Source: Squalus acanthias
Lineage: Eukaryota
Direction: 5' to 3'
Assembly: GCA_030390025.1 (NCBI GenBank)
Contig: CM059432.1
Span: 50,966,001 to 51,030,000, forward strand
Length of the DNA: 64,000 nucleotides
Positions 25,498-60,240 of the stretch are shown here, in pieces. Both the position numbers and the translations under genes were made by a program. Positions within the stretch are counted from its first letter, which is position 1, and each line of letters begins with the position of its first letter. Below the pieces are notes generated by a model. That model did not search any database, was not told where the DNA came from, and worked only from the letters and a program-made list of their open reading frames with translations.

Positions 25498-28420
25498 CTC
25501 AGGCGTCTGTAGAGCTGTTTCCTTGCTCTCGAGTTGTGTTGCTGTTTCTAGATCAGGAATGCCTAGCGCTTGCGGCTTATTAGCTCCTGGATCTCCTGGT
25601 CGTTCTTGTCAAACCAGTCTTGGTGTTTCCTGGTCGAGTGACCGAGCGTCTCTTCACGGGTTCTGATTATGGCGGTCTTGAGTGTAGACCAGGTGCTGTG
25701 GACACTCTGTGTTTCTGCATCACTGGGAGTTGTCAGATTGGTTGTGAGGCGCAGGCTGAATAGGGCTTTCTTAGCGGGGTCTTTGAGTGCTCCAGCGTTG
25801 ATTTTCCTGCAGCATTGTTTCTGTTGCCGCCGCTGTTTTGGGGCTACATTGATGGAGATGACAGAACGGATTAGGCGGTGGTCTGTCCAGCAGTCGTCAG
25901 CTCCTGTCATGGTGCGGGTGATGCAGACGTCCTTGCGGTCCCTCGCTAGGACGATGACGTAGTCCAGCAGATGCCAGTGCTTGGAGCGAGGGTGCTGCCA
26001 TGAAACCTTGTACTTGTCTCTCTGACGGAACAGGGTGTTGGTTATGACAAGGCCATGTTCTAAGCATTTCGTCAGGAGGAGGGTACCATTGCAGTTGGCT
26101 TTCCCTACCCCCTCTCTGCCGATCACACCTCCCCAGAGGTCTGTGTCCTTTCCAACGCTGGCGTTAAAGTCGCCAAGGAGGATCAGCTTGTCGCCCATTG
26201 GGACTCGGGACAGGGATTGTTCGAGACTGGAGCAGAATTCCTCTTTGGTCTCATCTGTGGCTTCCAGTGTTGGGGCGTATGCACTGATGACCGTAGCACA
26301 CTGGTCGGGCTAGGGTGAGCTGAAGAGTCATGAGGCGCTCCTTTATACCGCAAGGGGAGTCTCTGAGACGCCCAACTAGTTCATTTTTTATGGCGAAGCC
26401 TACCCCATGGAGGTGGTGTTCTTCTTCAGGTTTGCCTTTCCAGAAGAAGGTGTAGCCACCGCCTTGCTCTTTGAGCTGGCCTTCCCCTGCCCGCCGGGTC
26501 TCGCTTAGGGCGGCGATGTCAATGTCGAAACATCTGAGCTCCCGGGCAATGATAGCAGTACAGCGTTCCGGTCTGTCGCTGTTGGGGTTGTCCATGAGAG
26601 TCCTAACGTTCCAGGTCCTGAACTTTATTTTAAAGGGTGGAAGATGCCTGTGCGTGAATTCTTTTAACATGGGGTGGTCGTTGCACACCAGCTACCACAC
26701 AGGCTTGACAGAGCAAGGTCTTGGTCCAATGGCAAGGGGATCCAAGACGATTGGAGACCAGGCTCTGCTACATCGGCCTAGCACACACACACAAACATAC
26801 TCCCACTGTCCTCCTCCCTCCTTCCCGCAGGTCCTCTCTGCCTGGGTTTCCTAGGCTGCATTGTGGTCCTCCCGACCTCGCTGTTGGCCCGTGCCGCACC
26901 TTCCCTGGGCCCCGACCCCGCTGCTGGTCCCCGATGCTGATCCACGCTGCGCCCCTCCTGGGCTCGTCCTCACTCCTGGGTCTCGGCCTCGGACATGAAT
27001 GATGTTGTCTCTCACAAGATCAAATTAGCACTGATATTCTGGTCAAGGTTAGCCGGGGGGAGGTTAGTGGAGCCCCATCAGTTTTTTTGTATTTGTGCCT
27101 GAATGTGTATTTGTATTCCTGGCCCGAGCTCCTCTCGCGATTCCTGGCCCCGAGCTCCCCTCGCGATCCCTGGCCCCGAGCTCCCCTCGCGATTCCTGGC
27201 CCCGAGCTCCCCTCGTGATCCCTGGCCCTGAGCTCCCCTCGCGATCCCTGGCCCTGAGCTCCCCTCGCGATTCCTGGCCCCGAGCTCCCATCGCGATCCC
27301 TGGCCCCGAGCTCCCATCGCGATCTCTGGCCCTGAGCTCCCCTCGCGATTCCTGGCCCCGAGCTCCCCTCGTGATCTCTGGCCCCGAGCTCCCCTCGCGA
27401 TTCCTGGCCCCGAGCTCCCTCGCGATTCTGGCCCCGAGCTCCCTCGCGATCTCTGGCCCCGAGCTCCCCTCGCGATCTCTGGCCCCGAGCTCCCCTCGCG
27501 ATCTCTGGCCCCGAGCTCCCCTCGCGATCTCTGGCCCCGAGCTCCCCTCGCGATCCCTGGCCCCGAGCTCACCTCGCGATCTCTGGCCCCGAGCTCACCT
27601 CGCGATCTCTGGCCCCGAGCTCCCCTCGCGATCTCTGGCCCCGCGCTCACCTCGCAATCCCTGACCCCGCGCTCACCTCGCGATCTCTGGCCCCGAGCTC
27701 CCCTCGCGATCTCTGGCCCCGAGCTCCCCTCGCGATCCCTGGCCCCGAGCTCCCCTCGCGATCTCTGGCCCCGAGCTCCCCTCGCGATCCCTGGCCCCGA
27801 GCTCCCCTCGCGATCCCTGGCCCCGAGCTCCCCTCGCGATCCCTGGCCCCGAGCTCCCCTCGCAATTCCTGGCCCCGAGCTCCCCTCGCGATTCCTGGCC
27901 CCGAGCTCCCCTCACGATCTCTGTCCCTGAGCTCCCCTCGCGATCCCTGGCCCCGAGCTCCCCTCGTAATTCCTGGCCCCGAGCTCCCCTCGCGATTCCT
28001 GGCCCCGAGCTCCCCTCGCGATCTCTGGCCCTGAGCTCCCCTCGCGATCTCTGGCCCCGAGCTCCCCTCGCGATCTCTGGCCCCGCGCTCACCTCGCAAT
28101 CCCTGACCCCGCGCTCACCTCGCGATCTCTGGCCCCGAGCTCCCCTCGCGATCCCTGGCCCCGAGCTCCCCTCGCGATCCCTGGCCCCGAGCTCCCCTCG
28201 CGATCCCTGGCCCCGAGCTCCCCTCGCGATCCCTGGCCCCGAGCTCAGGTAACTTTAACCTTGCAGCTTGAACTTGCAATTAGGGATAAAATGCACCCAC
28301 TATTAGAGCCAGGGGAACTTAAACAGCAGAAGAGAGGAGACTGGGGGGAAAAAGAGCAAAGGATGGCAAAGGAGCTCCCTAGCGAGCTGCCAGCCCAGGA
28401 GCCATCTTGAATCGATGAGA
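25498..28420 (-). mobile_element. RTE-clade LINE 5' portion (long 5' UTR plus endonuclease), 3'-truncated
   Basis: TWNVRTL, DIAALSETR, LILLGDFNA, HLLDYV, WTDHRL in ORFs 26251-26688 and 25563-26198; the UTR extent beyond 26780 is inferred. Confidence 0.85.
27116..28245. repeat. 26-bp minisatellite, about 43 copies (TGGCCCCGAGCTCCCCTCGCGATCCC)
   Basis: Direct tandem units; the 26-aa periodicity in the ORF track equals three units. Confidence 0.98.
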
Positions 28421-33894: not shown

Positions 33895-34797
33895 AATTCA
33901 TTCTTGGGATGTGGGCGTCACTAGCAAGGCCAACATTTATTGCCCATCCCTAATTGCCCTTGAGAAAGTCGTGGTGAGCCGCCTTCTTGAACCGCTGCAG
34001 TCCGTGTGGTGAAGGTACAGTGAATTGGGGCTGGATTTTATCAATGGGGGTGCGTTGGGGGCGGGACTGCTGGTTGTCGGGTTTCAGTCCAGCCCCCAAT
34101 GACGTCTGGCCAACCCACGTTATTTTCCCTTGATTGACCTTGTTAAGCCCGCCCTGCGAGCTTAGCAGGCCAATTAAGGGAAAGCCGGTGACAGAGAACC
34201 CCAAGGGTTGAAGCCTGCAGGAAGAAACAAAGGTAAGTAAACTTTTTCTAACACTTTCTACTCACCTCCCATATTTACCTCTCCACACTTGCACCCATCA
34301 CTCACCTCCACAGCGCACTTTTCGGCCCCTCTGACCCCCACAGACCCACTGCTCGCCTCGCTGACCCTGGCGGGGTTTCCCGACGTCGGGAAGCCGGCAC
34401 TCGTGTTGGTAAAATGGGGATAAGCCTCTTAACTGCCTGTTAACTACCTGTTAAGTGGCAGTAATCCCCTTCCCTCCTCGAGGAGACAGGTCCCTGTGCG
34501 AGTCGGGGACCCGCCTCCCGGGAAGATGGCACAGAGGCAGGTTGGGAGCGGGTTTGGTACCCGCTCCCAGTTTCTGCCATTTTCCCAGCAGTCCCACCTC
34601 CAAACCCGCCTCCCCAGAGCTGGCAAAATTCCCCCCATGGTAGCGGTTTGGTACAACTGAGTGGCTTGCTAGGCCATTTCAGAGGGCAGTTAAGAGTCAA
34701 CCACATTGCTGTGGGTCTGGAGTCACATGTAGGCCAGACCAGGTAAGGACAGCAGATTTCCTTCTCTAAAGGACATTAGTGAACCAGATGGGTTTGA
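33895..34797 (-). mobile_element. Bipartite deletion derivative of LINE-B (5' leader plus 3' tail), split by a MITE
   Basis: 33895-34018 matches the LINE-B 3' end; 34640-34797 matches the LINE-B leader at 58602-58900. Confidence 0.8.
34028..34636. mobile_element. Harbinger MITE related to 13394-15094
   Basis: Ends GGGCTGGATTTT / AAAATTCCCCCC; left interior is an inverted homolog of 14940-15094. Confidence 0.8.
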
Positions 34798-39075: not shown

Positions 39076-39448
39076 AATAACAACAGAAAACGCTGGAAAA
39101 ACTCAGCAGGCCAGGCAGCATCCGTGGAGAGAGAAAGAGAGTTAACGTTTCAGGTCGATGACCTTTCATCAGAACTGGGAAGAGCCGGAAATCAAATAGA
39201 TTTAAGGCCAGGGTAAAGCTGGGAAAAGGGGGAGGGGATAAAGGAACAAAGGGGGAGATGAAGAGACATTAAGAGATATGCAAGGCTAGAGGTGGTGTTA
39301 ATGTGACAGATTAAGGCTGAATGAGGTGTGAAATCCACTGGCAGAATGAAGGACAGCTGCCAGCTTCTAGGAGGAAAAAAAAGGTGGGGGGGGGAACAAA
39401 TAAAAGGGTGGATAAAATAAAATATAAATGTGATTGGAGCTCAGCTTC
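39076..39448 (-). mobile_element. Penelope-like (pLTR) fragment
   Basis: 10-bp TSD ATCCCAGCTT (39066-39075, 39449-39458); contains a hammerhead motif; homologous to 58647-58801 and 59652-59795. Confidence 0.8.
39140..39176 (-). ncRNA. Minimal type I hammerhead ribozyme motif
   Basis: AGUU-CUGAUGA-A-AGGUC(AUC)GACCU-GAAA-CG-UU-AACU: conserved core, 5-bp stem II, 4-bp stem I, palindromic AACGUU in place of stem III. Confidence 0.8.
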
Positions 39449-53324: not shown

Positions 53325-53403
53325 TTTTTTTTCCGTTCCTGGGATGTGGGCGTCGCTGGCAAGGCCAGCATTTATTGCCCATCCCTAATTGCCCTTCAGA
53401 AGT
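52584..53403. repeat. About 188-bp inverted repeat (52584-52771 vs 53216-53403)
   Basis: Arms are reverse complements with about 3 mismatches. Confidence 0.95.
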
Positions 53404-54473
53404 TGGTGGTGAGCCGCCTTCTTGAACCGCTGCAGTCCTTGTGGTGAAGCTACTCCCACAATGCTGTTAGGGAAGGAGTTCCAGGATTTTGACCCAGCAG
53501 CGATGAAGGAACGGCGATATATTTCCAAGTCAGGATGGTGTGTAACTTGGAGGGGAACTTGGAGGTGATGATGTTCCCATGCGCCTGCTGCCCTTGTCCT
53601 TCTAGGTGGTAGAGGTCACGGGTTTGAGATGTGCTGACAAAGAAGCTTTTGCGAGTTGCTGCAGTGCATCTTGTAGATGGTACACACTGCAGCCACAGTG
53701 CGCTGGTGTGATGGAGGGAGTGAATGCTTAAGGTGGTGGATGGGGTGCCAACCAAGCGGGCTGCTTTGTCCTGGATGGTGTCGAGTTTCTTGAGTGTTGT
53801 TGGAGCTGCACTCATCCAGACAAGTGGAGAGTATTCCATCACACTCCTGACTTGTGTCTTGTAGATGGTGGAAAGGCTTTGGGGAGTCAGGAGGTGAGAC
53901 ACTCGCGGCAGAATACCCAGCCTCTGACCTGCTCTTGTAGCCACAGTATTTATGCGGCTGGTCCAGTTAAGTTTCTGGTCAATGGTGACCCCCAGGATGT
54001 TGATGGTGGGGGATTTGGCGATGGTAATGCCGTTGAATGTCAAGGGACGGTGGTTAGACTCTCGCTTGTTGGAGATTGTCATTGTCTGGCACTTGTGTGG
54101 CGTGAATGTTACTTGCCACTTATCAGCCCAAGCCTTAATGTCATCCCGGTCTTGTTGCATGCGGGCATGGACTGCTCCATTATCTGAGGAGTTGCAAATG
54201 GAACTGAACACTATGCAATCATCAGCGAACATCCCCACTTCTGACCTTATGATGGAGAGAAGGTCATTGATAAAGCAGCTGAAGATGATTGGGCCTAGGA
54301 CACTGCCCTGAGGAACTCCTGCAGCGATGTCCTGGGGCTGAGATGATTGACCTCCAACAACCACAACCATCTTCCTTTGTGTTAGGTATGACTCCAGCCA
54401 GTGGAGAGTTTTCCGTCTGCTTCCCATTGACTTCAGTTTTACTTGGGATCCTTGATGCCACACTCAGTCAAAT

Positions 54474-55873
54474 CTTCTTCTTCGGCAGTCCCTCGGAACC
54501 GAGGATGACTTGTTTCCACATTAAAAATGAGTTTGCAGGTGACTGATGAGTCCAATGCGGGACCTACAGTCTCCGTCACAGGTGGGGCAGACGGTGGTTG
54601 AAGGGGCCGGTGGGTGGTGTGCTTGGGTTGACGTGCGCTCCTTGTGCTGCCTGCGCTTGGCTTCCGCTTGCTCCCGGCGAAGAGACTCGAGGTGTTCAGT
54701 GCCTTCCCGGATGCTTCTCCTCCACTTTGTGCCGTCTTAGGCCAGGAATTCCCAGGTGTCGGTGGGGATGTTGCACTTTTTCAAGGAGGCTCTGAGGGTG
54801 TCCTTGAAGTGTTTCCTCTGCCCACCTGGGGCTCTCTTGCCGTGCCGGAGCTCCGAGTAGAGCGCTTGTTTTGGGAGTCTCGTATTGGGCATGCGGAAAA
54901 TGTGACCTGTCCATCGGAGCTGATCGAGCGTGGTCAAAGCTTCGATGCTGGGGATGTTGGCCTGAGCAAGAACACTGACGTTGGTGCATCTATCCTGCCA
55001 ATGGATTTGCAGGATCTTGCAGAGGCAGCGTTGGTGGTACCTCTCCAGTGCTTTGAGGTGCCTGCTGTACATGGTCCACGTCTCTGAGGCATACAGCAGG
55101 GCGGGTATCACTCCTGCTCTGTAGACCATGAGTTTAGTGCCGGGTTTGAGGTCCTGGTCTTCAAACACTCTCTTCCTCAGGCGACCGAAGGCTGCACTGG
55201 CACACTGAAGGCGGTGTTGGACAGTAGGCTTCCGAGGTATGGAAAGTGGTCCACGTTGTCCAAGGCCTTGTCGACGATTTTGATAATCGGGGGGCAGTAC
55301 TGTGTGGCGGGGGCAGGTTGGTAGAGGACCTTTGTCTTACGGATGTTTAGTGTAAGGCCCATGCTCTCGTACGCTTCGATGAAGGTGTTGACGATGGTTT
55401 GGAGTTCGACCTCCGAGTGAGCGCAGACGCAAGCATCGTCTGCATACTGTAATTCGACGACAGAGGATGGGACGACCTTGGATCTGGACTGGAGGCGACG
55501 GAGGTTGAACAGTTTCCAGTTTGTTCTGTAAATTAGCTCCACTCCAGTGGGGAGCTTACTGAGGGTGAGATGGAGCATTGCAGCAAGGAAGATCGAGAAG
55601 AGCGTTGGTGCGATGACACAGCCTTGCTTGACCCCGGTTCGCACGTGAATTGGGTATGTGGTGGAACCGTTGGTCAGGATCACGGCTTGCATGTCGTCGT
55701 GAAGCAGGTGGAGGATGGTGACAAACTTTTGAGGGCAACTGAATTTGAGGAGGACACTCCATAATCCCTCATGGTTGACAGTGTCGAAGGCCTTTGTGAG
55801 ATCAAAGAAGGCCATGTACAGCGGTTGGTGCTGTTCTCTGCATTTCTCTTGTAATTGACGTGCGGTGAAGATG
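54474..55873 (-). mobile_element. RTE-clade LINE, 5'-truncated, nested in LINE-B
   Basis: FFDLTKAFDTV, GVKQGCVIAP, LQYADD, C-terminal CRSRIGLISHL; (GAA)n tail; 3-bp TSD AAT. Confidence 0.95.
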
Positions 55874-56901
55874 AATGCTGCCTTGATGTCAAGGGCAGTC
55901 ACTCACACCACGCCTCTGGAATTCAGCTCTTTTGTCAATGTTTGGACCAAGGTTGTAATGAGGTCTGGAGCTGAGTGGTCCTGGCGGAACCCAAACTGAG
56001 CATCGGTGAGCAGGTTATTGGTGAGTAAGTGCCGCTTGTTAGCACTGTCGACGACTCCTTTCGTGACTTTGCTGATGATTGAGAGTAGACTGATGGGACG
56101 GTAATTGGCTGGATTGGATTTGTCCTGCTTTTTGTGGACAGGACAAACCTGGGCAATTTTCCACATTGTCGGGTAGATGCCAGTGTTGTAGCTGTGCTGC
56201 AACAGCTTGGCTAGAGGCGCAGCTTGTTCTGGAGCACAAGTCTTCAGCACGACAGCCGGGATGTTGTCGCAGCCCACAGCCTTTGCTGTATCCAGTGTGC
56301 TCAGCCGTTTCTTGATATCACGTGGAGTGAATCAAATTGGCTGAAGACTGGCTTCTGTGATGGTGAGAACCTCAGGAGGAGGGCGAGATGGATTATCCAC
56401 TCGTCACTTCTGGCTGAAGGTCATTGCAAACGTTTCAGCTTTGTCTTTTGTACTCATGTGCTGGGCTCCACCATCATTGAGGATGGGGATATTCATGGAG
56501 CCTCTTCCTCTGTTAATTGTTAAATTGTCCACCACCATTCACGACTGGATGTGGCAGGACTGCAGAGCTTTGATCTGATCAGTTGGTTGTGGGATCGCTT
56601 AGCTCTGTCTATAGCATGCTGCTTCCACAGTTTAGCATGCATGTGGTGTTCCCCAGGTTGGCACCTCATCTTTAGGTATGCCTGGTGCGGCTCCTGGCAT
56701 GCTCTTCTGCACTCTTCAATGAACCAGCGTTTGTTCCCTGGCTTCATGGTAGTGGTAGAGTGAGGGATATGCCGGGCCATGAGGTTACAGATTGTGGTGG
56801 AATGGAATTCTGCTGCTGCTGATGCCCCACAGCACCTCATTGATGCACAGCTTTTACCTGCGAGATCTGTTCTGAACCTATTCCATTTAGCACGGTGGTA
56901 G

Positions 56902-57818
56902 TGTTAGATTCGAATTTGGAGAAACTCTAGACGGAGACGGAATTGAGGACAAGAACAAAATTTATTAAAACAACTAAGAGAGACTTGTGCACAAGGGGAG
57001 CCACCCAGCTTCCTCAAGCTTGAGGTGTACTCACAAAGGAAAAACAGCGGTTCATTCAAGATATACAGTTCTATAAGGAACGCCCACCTACTACAGAATG
57101 GGGGCGTACACGTACAAACAACGTCACCACAGTTACTCTTTATTGGTTTCGGTGTTTAGTCACTCAACTGTTGGGCCCATCCCCTGAACTCAGGTGCCCC
57201 TCCCCTGCCCATGCTGGACACAGATGTTGGGAGTAACCCTACCTCCACATTCCTGTTGTTATTTCTTCCTCACTATAAGCATAGTTTATTGTTCGAGAGG
57301 ACCGGTTTTACCCTTAACTGCCGACCAAGCACAAAGCCACAGTGATTCATGTGTCCAGCGAACTCGTACCATGTTTGATAATTGGTACCCTTATCTCCTG
57401 GGAGGACAGGCCGTGCTTGGACAGTGACTCCACTCAGGCGCTGTGAATACACATCCCTAAGTTTAATTAGTGAAGAGACGCCTTGCAGCCTGCAAAAGTG
57501 CCTGTTCCTTGCATTTTACGATCCCCTTATCACTTTTACTGGTCTCTGATGTTCAATATTCGACCTCGCTTACATCCCTGCTATCTGTTCCCAGCTGCAT
57601 GTTGTCAGTCTCCGTTTTAATTAAGCCCCATCTTTGAATCTACAGCTATTCCTTACAAGTGCCTTTTTTATGAGAGGGTTAAACATAGTCAAGTATCCGA
57701 GAATTCTTTGGGAACAAGCTGAACCTTTCAGTGAGCTATTTCTTACAGTTACCTTCTTTGGGAGGGTTAAACCTAGCCAAGTATCCCAGAATTCTTTGGG
57801 AACTAGCTGGATCCTTCA
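56902..57818 (-). mobile_element. Solo LTR (917 bp) nested in LINE-B
   Basis: TG...CA ends; perfect 4-bp TSD GTAG; on the minus strand CCAAT (near 57142), TATA-like (near 57073) and AATAAA (56961-56966) occur in order. Confidence 0.9.
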
Positions 57819-58646
57819 GTAGTGCCCCATAACATGATGGAGGGTGTCCTCAGTGTAAAGACTTTGTCTCCACAAGAACTGTGCGATGGTCACTGCTACC
57901 AATACTGTCATGGACAGATGCATCTGCAACAGGTAGATTGGTGAGGACGAGATCAAGTATGTTTTTCCCTTGTGTTGGTTCTTTCACCACCTGCCGCAGG
58001 CCCAGTCTGGCAGCAATGTCCTTCAGGACTCGGCCAGCTCAGTCAGTAGTGGTGCTACCGAGCCACGCTTGATGATGAACATTGAAGTCCCCCACCCAGA
58101 GTATATTCTGTGCCCTTGCTACCCTCAGTGCTTCTTCCAAGTGGTGTTGAACATGGAGGAGTACTGATTCATCAGCTGAGGGAGGGTAGTAGGTGGTAAT
58201 CAGCAGGAGGTTTCCTTGCCCATGCTTGATCTGAAGCCATGAGACTTCATGGGTACCGGAATCAATGTTGAGGACTCCGAGGGCCACTCCCTCCCAACTT
58301 TATGCCACTGTGCTGCCACATCTGGTGGGTCTGTTCTGCCGGTGGGACAGAACATACCCAGGGATGGTGATGGAGGAGTCTGGGACATTGGCTGAAAGGT
58401 ATGATTCTATGAGTATGACTATGTGAGGCTGTTGCTTGACTAGTCTGTGGGACAGCTCTCCCAATTTTGGCACAAGTCCCCAGATGTTAGTGAGGAGGAC
58501 TTTGCAGGGTTGACTGGGCTGCGTGTGTCGTTGTCGTGTCTGAAGCTGGTGCCTAGGTTGATGCTGGGTGGTCCATCCAGTTTTATTCTTATTGTTTTTC
58601 TTAGCAGTTTGGTAGAACTGAGTGGCTTGCTAGGGCATTTCTGAGG

Positions 58647-58801
58647 ACAAAAGCAAAATACTGTGGATGCTGGAAATCTGAAATAAAAACTCTTAACTTT
58701 TTCCAGTTCTGACAAAAGGTCACTGACTTGAAACGTTAACTCTGATTCTCTCTCCACAGATGCTGCCTGACCTGCTGAGTCTTTCCAGCATTTTCTGTTT
58801 T
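58647..58801 (+). mobile_element. Penelope-like pLTR fragment with degenerate hammerhead, nested in the LINE-B leader
   Basis: TSD CATTTC(T/A)GAGG; CTGACAA-AAGGTCACTGACTT-GAAACGTTAAC. Confidence 0.78.
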
Positions 58802-59008
58802 CATTTCAGAGGGCAGTTAAGAATCAACCACATTGCTGTGGGCCTGGAGTCACATATAGCAGATTTTCTTCCACTAAAGGACATTAGTGAACCAGATGGG
58901 TTTATTACAACAAGCCAATATAGTTCTGTGAGTCACCATTACTGATACTAGCTTTTTATTCCAGATTTATATAATTAATTGAATTTAAATTCCACAGCTG
59001 CCGTAGTG

Positions 59009-59089
59009 GGATTTGAACTGCACATATACCCAATCATCCAAGGCTTCTGGATTACTAGTCCAGTATCACAACCACTATGCTACCATCCC
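59009..59089 (-). promoter_or_regulatory. tRNA-Ser-like Pol III type 2 promoter head of LINE-B
   Basis: A box TAGCATAGTGG (59072-59082); anticodon arm CTGGA-CTAGTAA-TCCAG (59047-59063); long variable region; B box GTTCAAATCC (59009-59018). Confidence 0.85.
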
Positions 59090-59651
59090 CAATGGATCTC
59101 ACACACCCAAGAAATGCAGCCTGCCCAGCCAGGGGGGGGGGGGGGGCGGGCAGGGGAGAAGGGGAATGAGAAGGAGGAAAAACACTGTCTCTTGATTTCA
59201 CACTGCCAGCCACCAGCTCCTCAAGATCGACCAACAAGGTCCCCAGTGAAAGTCAGCAGCCTTCCACCAGCTATGCTGCAGCCACTGGATAGCACTGCGT
59301 GACATCAGTAAGATAGGCAAAGGCACACACAAGACAGTCACTAAGGGAATGCATAAGTGTGATGAGTTGATTTCTTGATGTCATATTGGATGGATAGATG
59401 TATAAAGCTGGATTGGAATGCTTGCTTTGTGGTGGCTTTTATTTCAGCATTGTGGCCAAGAGGATGCTGTGATGGTCAATAACAGAGGGAAGGTAAGGTA
59501 TGTACAAATATTGAAAGGGGAATTGGGGTTGTGGTCACTGGTACCTCAGGCAGATGATTCTATCCCGGATATCCTGGCCAGAAAGGGGCTGTCTGGGTTG
59601 CTTCTTTCTTTCTGCTTCCTCCTCTGCTGTGTCGTCCTCTTCCCTCTGCGA

Positions 59652-59795
59652 GCTGATGCTGTAAATCTGAAATAAAAGTGGAAAATGTTGGAACTACTCC
59701 GCAGTTCAGGCAGTATCTGGACATGAGACATGAACTCTGTTTCTCTCTCAACAGATGCTGCCTGACCTGCTGAGTATTTCCACCACTTTCTGTCT
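59652..59795. mobile_element. Palindromic Penelope-like pLTR remnant
   Basis: Two opposed partial copies of CAGATGCTGCCTGACCTGCTGAGTATTTCCA; no hammerhead core. Confidence 0.65.
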
Positions 59796-60240
59796 TCTCA
59801 GAGGCCATCCTTTACCATCCGAGGCCTTGCAAGCGTCCAGCAGCACTTCCTGCACACTTAAATTTTTAACATGTATTGCATCAAAAAAAATCCAGTCCAA
59901 AAGCTTAAATGCAAATTTTTCTGAAAGATGTGTGTGTACCTTTAAGAGGTGTTGACAGCATCTCTGTCAGTCTGCTGAATGCTGGGTTTTCATAGCGAGC
60001 TTAGGACCCAGCGCTTAACTCATCGCTAATGTTGAGGTTTGCTGAGGTGACGTTAAGTTGGCATGCACGTCACCCTCTCCACTTACGTCCATGGTCAGCG
60101 CTGCTGATAGCAGTGCTAAGGCCCTCACCAAAATGGTGGCCACCGAGTCCCGTGCCAGAGAAGTCACTAGAGTAAAGGCCGCCATTTTCTGCCAGGACAG
60201 CGGCGGTAACTCATGGTGGTAAGTGGCCCAATTTCTAGGC

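Follow-up and report, generated by a model that had tools for sequence, protein, structure and literature searches.

The Zenon copy and its surroundings

The stretch of DNA analysed here, referred to as the window, comprises 64,000 nt of the dogfish Squalus acanthias (contig CM059432.1, positions 50,966,001 to 51,030,000). On its minus strand lies a broken copy of a Zenon element, which runs from 59090 down to about 53340 and is interrupted by three nested insertions. This copy is dead, since it carries stops within the endonuclease in addition to the insertions. Family positions are numbered from the A of an ATG at window position 58638 (minus strand), taken as +1.

The 5' end of the element is a tRNA-derived head (58997..59090, minus strand), which holds an A box (~59082-59072), a B box (~59020-59009) and a duplicated anticodon-like arm, and matches the Rfam tRNA model in family copies (30.2 bits). 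A second anticodon-like hairpin is found between both boxes (~59050-59020; also L101:1754-1832); its stem differs among species yet stays paired, and its loop retains TRATG, a stop-start-like pentamer (partly by eye). The upstream part of the 5' leader follows (58806..58996, minus strand) and contains most of a core of ~160 nt that is conserved from sharks to rays, as judged by copy comparison and partly by eye. The leader is then split by an unrelated palindromic insertion of 156 nt (58650..58805, no strand assigned), and the ATG at 58638, the only in-frame ATG of a previous sequence-only reading of the window, lies in the 11-nt duplication that this insertion made. Related copies of the palindromic repeat are found at 39076-39184 and 59655-59807, and we assume a resemblance to the terminal repeats of shark Penelope-like elements.

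Beyond the insertion lies an anticodon-like hairpin (58618..58643, minus strand) with a 7-nt loop, CTAGCAA (58633-58627), whose anticodon-like triplet is AGC (58631-58629). The hairpin's 5' stem and loop are shared with an ATG-NNN-TAG (58630..58638, minus strand), an unusable start that reads GTG in an older subfamily and is followed by a stop at codon 9 in most copies. A linker of 12 nt (58606..58617, minus strand) connects the hairpin to GCT(A) at 58602..58605, which is in the frame of the ORF, is complementary to (T)AGC of the loop and marks the 3' limit of cross-species conservation (partly by eye). The linker has a fixed length (12 nt in 98/99 copies) and a variable sequence, with subfamily variants at +27 to +29, comparable to the variable loop of pseudoknot I (PKI). 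From there, an Arg-rich, Met-free N-terminal extension of ~33 codons (58504..58602, minus strand), under purifying selection in the endonuclease frame, leads into the APE endonuclease portion of a single ORF (57819..58503, minus strand), broken in this copy and matching PF03372 and PF14529 in a family copy.

The remainder of the element is found beyond two further insertions. An LTR-like insertion of 915 nt (56904-57818), with TG...CA ends and a 4-nt duplication, lies within the ORF and precedes the ORF middle and the start of the reverse transcriptase (RT) (55874..56903, minus strand; domain search and copy alignment). A 5'-truncated LINE of another kind (54474-55873; RVT_1), which we take to be RTE-like, is nested in the RT, and the remaining RT, the 3' UTR and the poly(A) end lie beyond it (53340..54473, minus strand; copy alignment).

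A second copy of the leader core lies at 34640..34795 (minus strand). It has an intact hairpin (34682-34657), ends at GCTAC and has no ORF after it, so that it is not the second copy of the LINE ORF that it had been read as; in lacking the endonuclease and ending at GCTAC it resembles internally deleted derivatives of the family. Sequence comparison places a 3' tail of the same family ~620 nt past this copy (33895..34018, minus strand), which is probably its own, separated from it by other sequence. The coordinates and letters of the sequence-only reading hold at both places: the ATG at 58638-58636, the TAG at 58632-58630 and TGCTA at 58606-58602 on the minus strand, a frame that is open and Met-free into KVLLTNIWG (K at 58503), and, in the second copy, ATG-GCC-TAG-CAA (ATG at 34677) and GCTA (34644-34641), the TAG-to-GCT spacing of 27 nt being identical. 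Self-comparison of the window also reveals a GC-rich tandem array at 27115-28247, with a unit of ~26 nt.

Identity and structure of the element

By sequence comparison, the element is an elasmobranch Zenon LINE of the CR1 group, closest to SquAca_Zenon-1. Over its first 400 nt it agrees with the Zenon consensuses published for sharks and rays (nine Zenon consensus rows, compared by eye). Elements are ~3.3 kb long and consist of the tRNA-like head, a leader of ~300 nt, a single APE-RT ORF and a poly(A) tail, with no ORF1; the tail is present in 19/20 long copies, and most of the 19 tailed copies have A-rich ends after it. The same length, single ORF, poly(A) tail and lack of ORF1 are described for elasmobranch Zenon-1 by Stuart et al. 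2026 (PMC13343379), with no sequence difference in the available part of that source. The words "tRNA" and "start codon" are absent from its main text, which thus says nothing of the head, of the lack of an AUG or of the leader. CR1-Zenon has also been noted in the whale shark (10.1101/443036).

A first look at the 3.7-Gb genome gives 83,466 candidates for the Zenon endonuclease. The element truly begins with the head, as 46 of the 111 LINE-type copies start in two bins there and their flanks are unrelated; no clear target-site duplication was found in four full-length copies. The copy sets used throughout were picked by similarity or by pattern and are not an unbiased sample. Duplicates at six loci (L007, L008, L031, L054, and L076/L077 or L045/L059) were removed before counting, and 25 metagenome loci were excluded.

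Relatives of the family outside the elasmobranchs look different at their 5' ends. Two invertebrate Zenon-like relatives, L112 (400-560) and L114 (700-760), lack a tRNA head and have a normal AUG ~30-50 codons ahead of the endonuclease, and L114 holds a splice-acceptor-like tract directly before this AUG. Nor is a tRNA-like head seen at the start of the Zenon consensuses of coelacanth and hagfish (by eye). Because of these relatives, the change to a tRNA head and an AUG-less ORF looks specific to sharks and rays. In the available part of PMC6740152, the 5' ends of Persaeus, which derives from lepidopteran Zenon, and of lepidopteran Zenon itself are likewise without a tRNA head or Pol III promoter. 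A search of viral contigs with the endonuclease returned no related locus, and one of metagenome contigs with a single protein returned none, while an alignment query of the latter gave 25 distant loci; none of the three 5' flanks inspected among these has a convincing tRNA head. The hairpin-plus-GCTA pattern has 25 matches in viral contigs, none of them similar to the element, and these are taken as chance.

A reading frame without a usable AUG

The lack of a usable AUG, which had been claimed for the window copy, extends to the whole family. In the family majority, the frame that begins at the ATG meets stops at codons 3 and 9 and is then open for 973 codons; it holds no in-frame AUG free of these stops ahead of the endonuclease, and its first in-frame Met comes only past the endonuclease, at codon 296. 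TAA occupies codon 9 in 75/97 copies and in ~68 of the 100 genome-order matches listed. This second stop was invisible to the sequence-only reading because both window copies carry the minority TAC. Among the 111 LINE-type copies, 55 have the ATG and both stops, and 9 have the ATG with neither; the losses of the two stops co-occur at the rate expected by chance (9 seen vs 7.7 expected). Only 2/103 copies are open from the ATG into the endonuclease. A further nine AUG triplets lie upstream of the ATG at +1.

The stretch ahead of the endonuclease is coding. Subfamily-level variants from +58 to +112 are synonymous in 6/8 cases in the endonuclease frame and in 2/8 in the +1 frame, so this linker region is read as coding in the main frame; within the endonuclease, 10/18 such variants are synonymous, vs a neutral fraction of 0.30. 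The spacing between GCT and the endonuclease preserves the frame in 82/99 copies and, by eye, in the consensuses of four other species. Past GCT, the consensus published for the dogfish is off the frame by one base, a shift that is not seen in the copies measured here and that probably stems from merged subfamilies; the by-eye comparison of species carries such consensus errors. Since the second stop lies upstream and the linker region is coding in the main frame, translation would start between +28 and about +75.

The near-cognate codons in this interval are ACG (+37) and AAG (+52). The codon after GCT is ACG in 56/99 copies, ACA in 31/99 and ATG in 7/99, and in the consensuses of other species the codon after the GCTA-conserved block is ACA in three and AAA in the stingray (by eye). 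Because this codon varies among ACG, ACA and AAA, no near-cognate start is conserved after GCT in these sequences. An out-of-frame AUG is found at +56 (window ~58583), where it opens a 49-codon +1 ORF over the start of the endonuclease in 40/111 LINE-type copies; it is present in five species' consensuses (by eye) and absent from the window copy.

The hairpin, its loop and GCTA

The hairpin of the second copy folds as had been drawn, with -7.4 kcal/mol, an ensemble frequency of 0.71 and a z-score of only -1.09. The window copy at 58.6 kb does not adopt the hairpin (-1.2 kcal/mol) and carries two stem changes, G4>C in the inner stem and T-4>A in the outer stem, rather than the single mismatch reported earlier. 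With G at +1, as in one older copy, the fold reaches -11.6 kcal/mol (z -2.22). Most copies have A.C at the stem pair +1/+17; 30/155 have G-C there and the stingray consensus has A-U (by eye), and the pair +4/+14 turns into G.U in 30/159 copies. With these compatible and compensatory changes in its stem, the hairpin is, on comparative evidence, real.

Sharks and rays share both the 7-nt C-U-NNN-A-A loop and the in-frame GCT(A). The Zenon-1 consensuses of five shark and ray species retain CTAGCAA and GCTA, down to the wobble T of GCT, and with them the complementarity between loop and codon (5/5, by eye). Neither of the two sequence-based refutations set out with the original claim, an in-frame AUG ahead of the endonuclease in the family consensus or a loop-codon complementarity that is not conserved, came about. 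The core from -120 to +37 differs at ~5-10 of 157 nt among the five species, and divergence begins right after GCTA, past which four of the five consensuses retain the reading frame (all by eye). Within the dogfish genome, the leader core varies about as much as the third positions of the endonuclease. In a by-eye tally of the 100 matches listed out of 5,270 pattern matches, the anticodon and the non-CpG codon positions vary at 2-5%, which is the background, and +7, +14 and +27 to +29 vary at subfamily level. About one copy in four has C or G at loop position +7, the equivalent of U33. Seven other public runs and one raw-read run have the same family variants and, among the rows listed, no change in loop or codon; X21 contributed only 8 reads.

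The pairing itself was claimed to reach 5 bp at 58.6 kb. Across the family it amounts to 4 bp, 3 of them in frame, because the fifth pair of the window copy is created by CpG decay (C33>T), which is seen in 17/107 LINE-type copies; in the PKI of CrPV there are 5 pairs. When the 30 nt after the hairpin are shuffled, a 4-bp match anywhere has p=0.17, an in-frame match to the anticodon triplet p=0.046, and such a match plus the fourth pair p=0.02; these values are modest and post hoc. The fourth pair (U7-A37) is broken in 28/123 copies and, by analogy with the pair adjoining PKI, which has a +1-frame effect (PMC4132737), would favour the +1 frame. Covariation between loop and GCT, the check proposed with the original claim, yielded an invariant pairing: no matched change occurs in any data set, and the 100 listed matches contain one double change vs 0.6 expected. 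That the six loop and codon positions escape variation is not significant alone (about p=0.24-0.37, hand calculation). The pseudoknot thus fits a PKI-like domain and is unproven, because the pairing is invariant and no covariation was found.

The rest of the leader and signs of Pol III transcription

Across species, the leader helix -86/-68 alternates among A-U, G.U and G-C (by eye), and no variant within the dogfish genome breaks the two long-range helices -137/-22 and -93/-1. Folding z-scores of the leader are near 0, and a permutation test of a multi-helix model, with 5 compatible and 5 breaking changes, gave p=0.06-0.16, which is post hoc and not significant. An Rfam scan of three family copies returned no IRES family up to E=5 and no ribozyme family. 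At -146 lies a U(G/A)ACC resembling the L1.1a motif (PMC10275262), for which no closing helix was found. A PKIII like that of the intergenic region (IGR) IRESs (UAGG/CCUA) was rejected, as variants at -91, -88 and -54 break it, and an apparently compensatory pair at -111/-39 was set aside, as 9 copies change one side only. The PKII/PKIII ribosome-binding domain of a type 6 IRES is therefore not recognisable in the leader sequence. Of the likeness to an IGR IRES that had been proposed, the conserved loop and GCT stand, and what falls short is an invariant pairing of 3-4 bp with no reliable PKII or PKIII.

The signs of Pol III transcription are those of a type 2 promoter, namely the A and B boxes in an Rfam-matching, tRNA-like head at the 5' end of the element. 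In addition, the sense strand of the family majority contains no TTTT in 3,309 nt vs 4.1 expected (p=0.017), and 8 TTT runs vs 20.8 expected (p=0.001), with runs of A, C and G near expectation. With a shuffle that preserves codon usage, the value for TTTT becomes p=0.12; the lack of TTTT is thus partly due to a T-poor choice of codons, which may itself be an adaptation. Two invertebrate relatives hold 11 and 21 TTTT, and 12/20 long natural copies of the dogfish family have none in the ORF region. The head and the lack of TTTT fit the uncapped Pol III RNA of the sequence-only reading. We infer the transcription itself from these features, and the lack of a cap would follow from it.

Candidate mechanisms of initiation

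An AUG-less ORF in a vertebrate LINE needs some way to start even if the pseudoknot fails. The frame, the two stops and the conserved core together suggest that initiation is probably independent of AUG and set by the leader near GCU. The best single mechanism for this would be a pseudoknot that mimics an anticodon paired to its codon, to which we would give slightly less than even weight. Pol III would make an uncapped RNA of 3.3 kb, whose conserved leader core of ~160 nt would recruit ribosomes. The hairpin loop would then pair with GCU in the P site, as in the tRNA/mRNA mimics of type 6c-6f IRESs, and decoding would start at ACG, ACA or AAA, giving ~33 basic residues followed by the endonuclease. 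An extension of this length is similar to that of the AUG-started invertebrate relatives.

Another fold of the leader could instead drive a cap- and AUG-independent start near GCU, which would be the first decoded codon or pair with the tRNA head or with a UGGUU segment, while the hairpin would be structural or serve RNP assembly. Several helices of a length equal to or greater than that of the loop-codon pairing involve +30 to +37, and the segment ACCGCTA pairs with the tRNA head as well as with the loop or better (7 bp). Its fifth pair is lost in 2/5 species (by eye), and the constraint on the A box explains this pairing. The helices -137/-22 and -93/-1 absorb all within-genome variants unbroken, most non-coding derivatives keep the leader through the hairpin, and type 6a-6d IRESs most often have GCU as their first codon, according to PMC12221177. 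The 7-nt loop, however, is invariant across species, and no hairpin loop offers GGU to pair with the ACC that precedes GCU. We regard this alternative as rather unlikely, yet as the most probable of the rivals.

A start with the initiator Met-tRNA at a near-cognate codon, either the ACG just after GCU or an AAG or AGG, reached by scanning or by reinitiation from the short ATG ORF, appears improbable. The ACG has a purine at -3 in addition to its frequency, and it lies ~33 codons ahead of the endonuclease, as does the real AUG of the relatives L112 and L114. Against it, ACA is so much more frequent than ATG at this codon that it marks a subfamily rather than CpG decay alone, and copies with ACA have 11 synonymous to 10 non-synonymous shared changes vs the neutral fraction of 0.30, while other species have ACA or AAA there. 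The sole other in-frame near-cognate before the endonuclease is AAG, a very poor initiator, and starts at AGG are weak too. Scanning would also have to pass the nine upstream AUG triplets, and reinitiation, which had been offered as an alternative to an IRES, finds no conserved downstream start and is further opposed by the second in-frame stop and the GTG subfamily.

Quite improbable as well is a start at the out-of-frame AUG at +56 followed by frameshifting, or at an AUG spliced on from a Pol II transcript. The Zenon-1 consensuses of all five species contain the AUG at +56, and several of the changes among species in the linker region are synonymous in the +1 frame (by eye); this AUG is absent, however, in 57/111 LINE-type copies, which have the same synonymous excess (7:5), there is no slippery site before the endonuclease, and the subfamily variants of the linker region favour the main frame. 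In the case of splicing, the sequence leading up to CTAG looks like a 3' splice site, the relative L114 has its acceptor-like tract, and +7 stays a pyrimidine more often in LINE copies (G in 6/108 vs 12/61 derivatives, p=0.008). An acceptor at +9 or +21 would still meet the TAA at codon 9, and no GT..AG joint was found among the joints listed (including 15 of 783 in one set).

Readthrough from the ATG is largely refuted and very improbable: an ATG-GCC-TAG-CAA conserved in the ORF frame in five species, a leaky UAG-CAA context and the nine copies with neither stop speak for it, and against it stand the frequent second stop, the chance co-occurrence of stop losses, the GTG found instead of the ATG in one subfamily (2,211 exact matches), the 11-nt linker of the whale shark consensus, which puts the ATG out of frame (one consensus, by eye), and the ready explanation of ATG and TAG as stem and loop bases.

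Relation to known systems

The closest counterparts of the pseudoknot mechanism are the type 6c-6f IRESs (PMC10275262, PMC10516663, PMC12221177), with which the Zenon leader shares a non-AUG ORF and the order of hairpin, variable linker, paired triplet and first codon, the last two as predicted, as well as a conserved core of ~150-160 nt and a Thr-type first codon. Type 6e/6f IRESs commonly begin decoding at ACA or ACU (PMC12221177, PMC10516663); in most IRESs of type 6, decoding begins at GCU, which is then not part of the mimic. Unlike these IRESs, the leader has only 3-4 loop-codon pairs, no covariation, no Rfam match and no reliable PKII or PKIII, and it sits 5' behind a tRNA head, whereas type 6 IRESs lie between two viral ORFs. 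The leader may therefore work like a type 6c-6f IRES, yet it is not classifiable as one.

Among non-LTR elements, R2 and L1Tc are likewise single-ORF elements whose uncapped RNA is thought to use an IRES-like leader (review PMC6765202). Their RNAs are Pol I or polycistronic co-transcripts freed by an HDV-like ribozyme (PMC6765202), whereas Zenon has a tRNA-type promoter at its 5' end and no ribozyme family in the Rfam scan. A commentary from 2013 raised the idea of IGR IRESs in non-LTR elements, in the part available without an example (PMC3894237). Initiation by a factorless tRNA mimic has so far been known in RNA viruses alone, and where it came from is treated as an open question (PMC12221177). 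In the literature covered, with most subscription journals and Repbase Reports outside its scope, no report was found of a tRNA head, of Pol III transcription or of a non-AUG start in Zenon, nor of an IGR-type IRES shown in a LINE.

The full combination would be a full-length coding RNA made by Pol III and translated from a factorless, tRNA-mimic, type 6-like IRES in a vertebrate genome, with no cap, AUG or initiator tRNA, kept since the shark/ray split and present in tens of thousands of copies. We consider it tentative and, with all its parts joined, rather doubtful. If true, it would explain how a Pol III transcript, normally untranslated, can encode an enzyme of 970 residues. The leader provides a concrete candidate of 160 nt with a predicted start codon.

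Internally deleted derivatives

Zenon resembles tRNA-derived SINEs and bipartite LINE derivatives (PMC5786205) in its tRNA head with A and B boxes and its LINE tail, and it sheds derivatives of head, leader and tail by internal deletion; unlike SINEs, the full element encodes its own enzyme. Other shark SINEs are covered in PMC5499810. If the mechanism proposed above is true, the element would be a protein-coding SINE-LINE hybrid that blurs the divide between both classes.

The end at GCTAC seen in the second window copy recurs in 11/49 unselected derivatives, the only count free of selection, since derivative ends at +38 are otherwise selected by the query. The hairpin at 34657-34682 may resemble the central hairpin of the CORE-SINE domain. 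An older SINE-like subfamily (L166-L195), the one in which GTG replaces the ATG, consists of head, leader and tail, with several different junctions to the tail.
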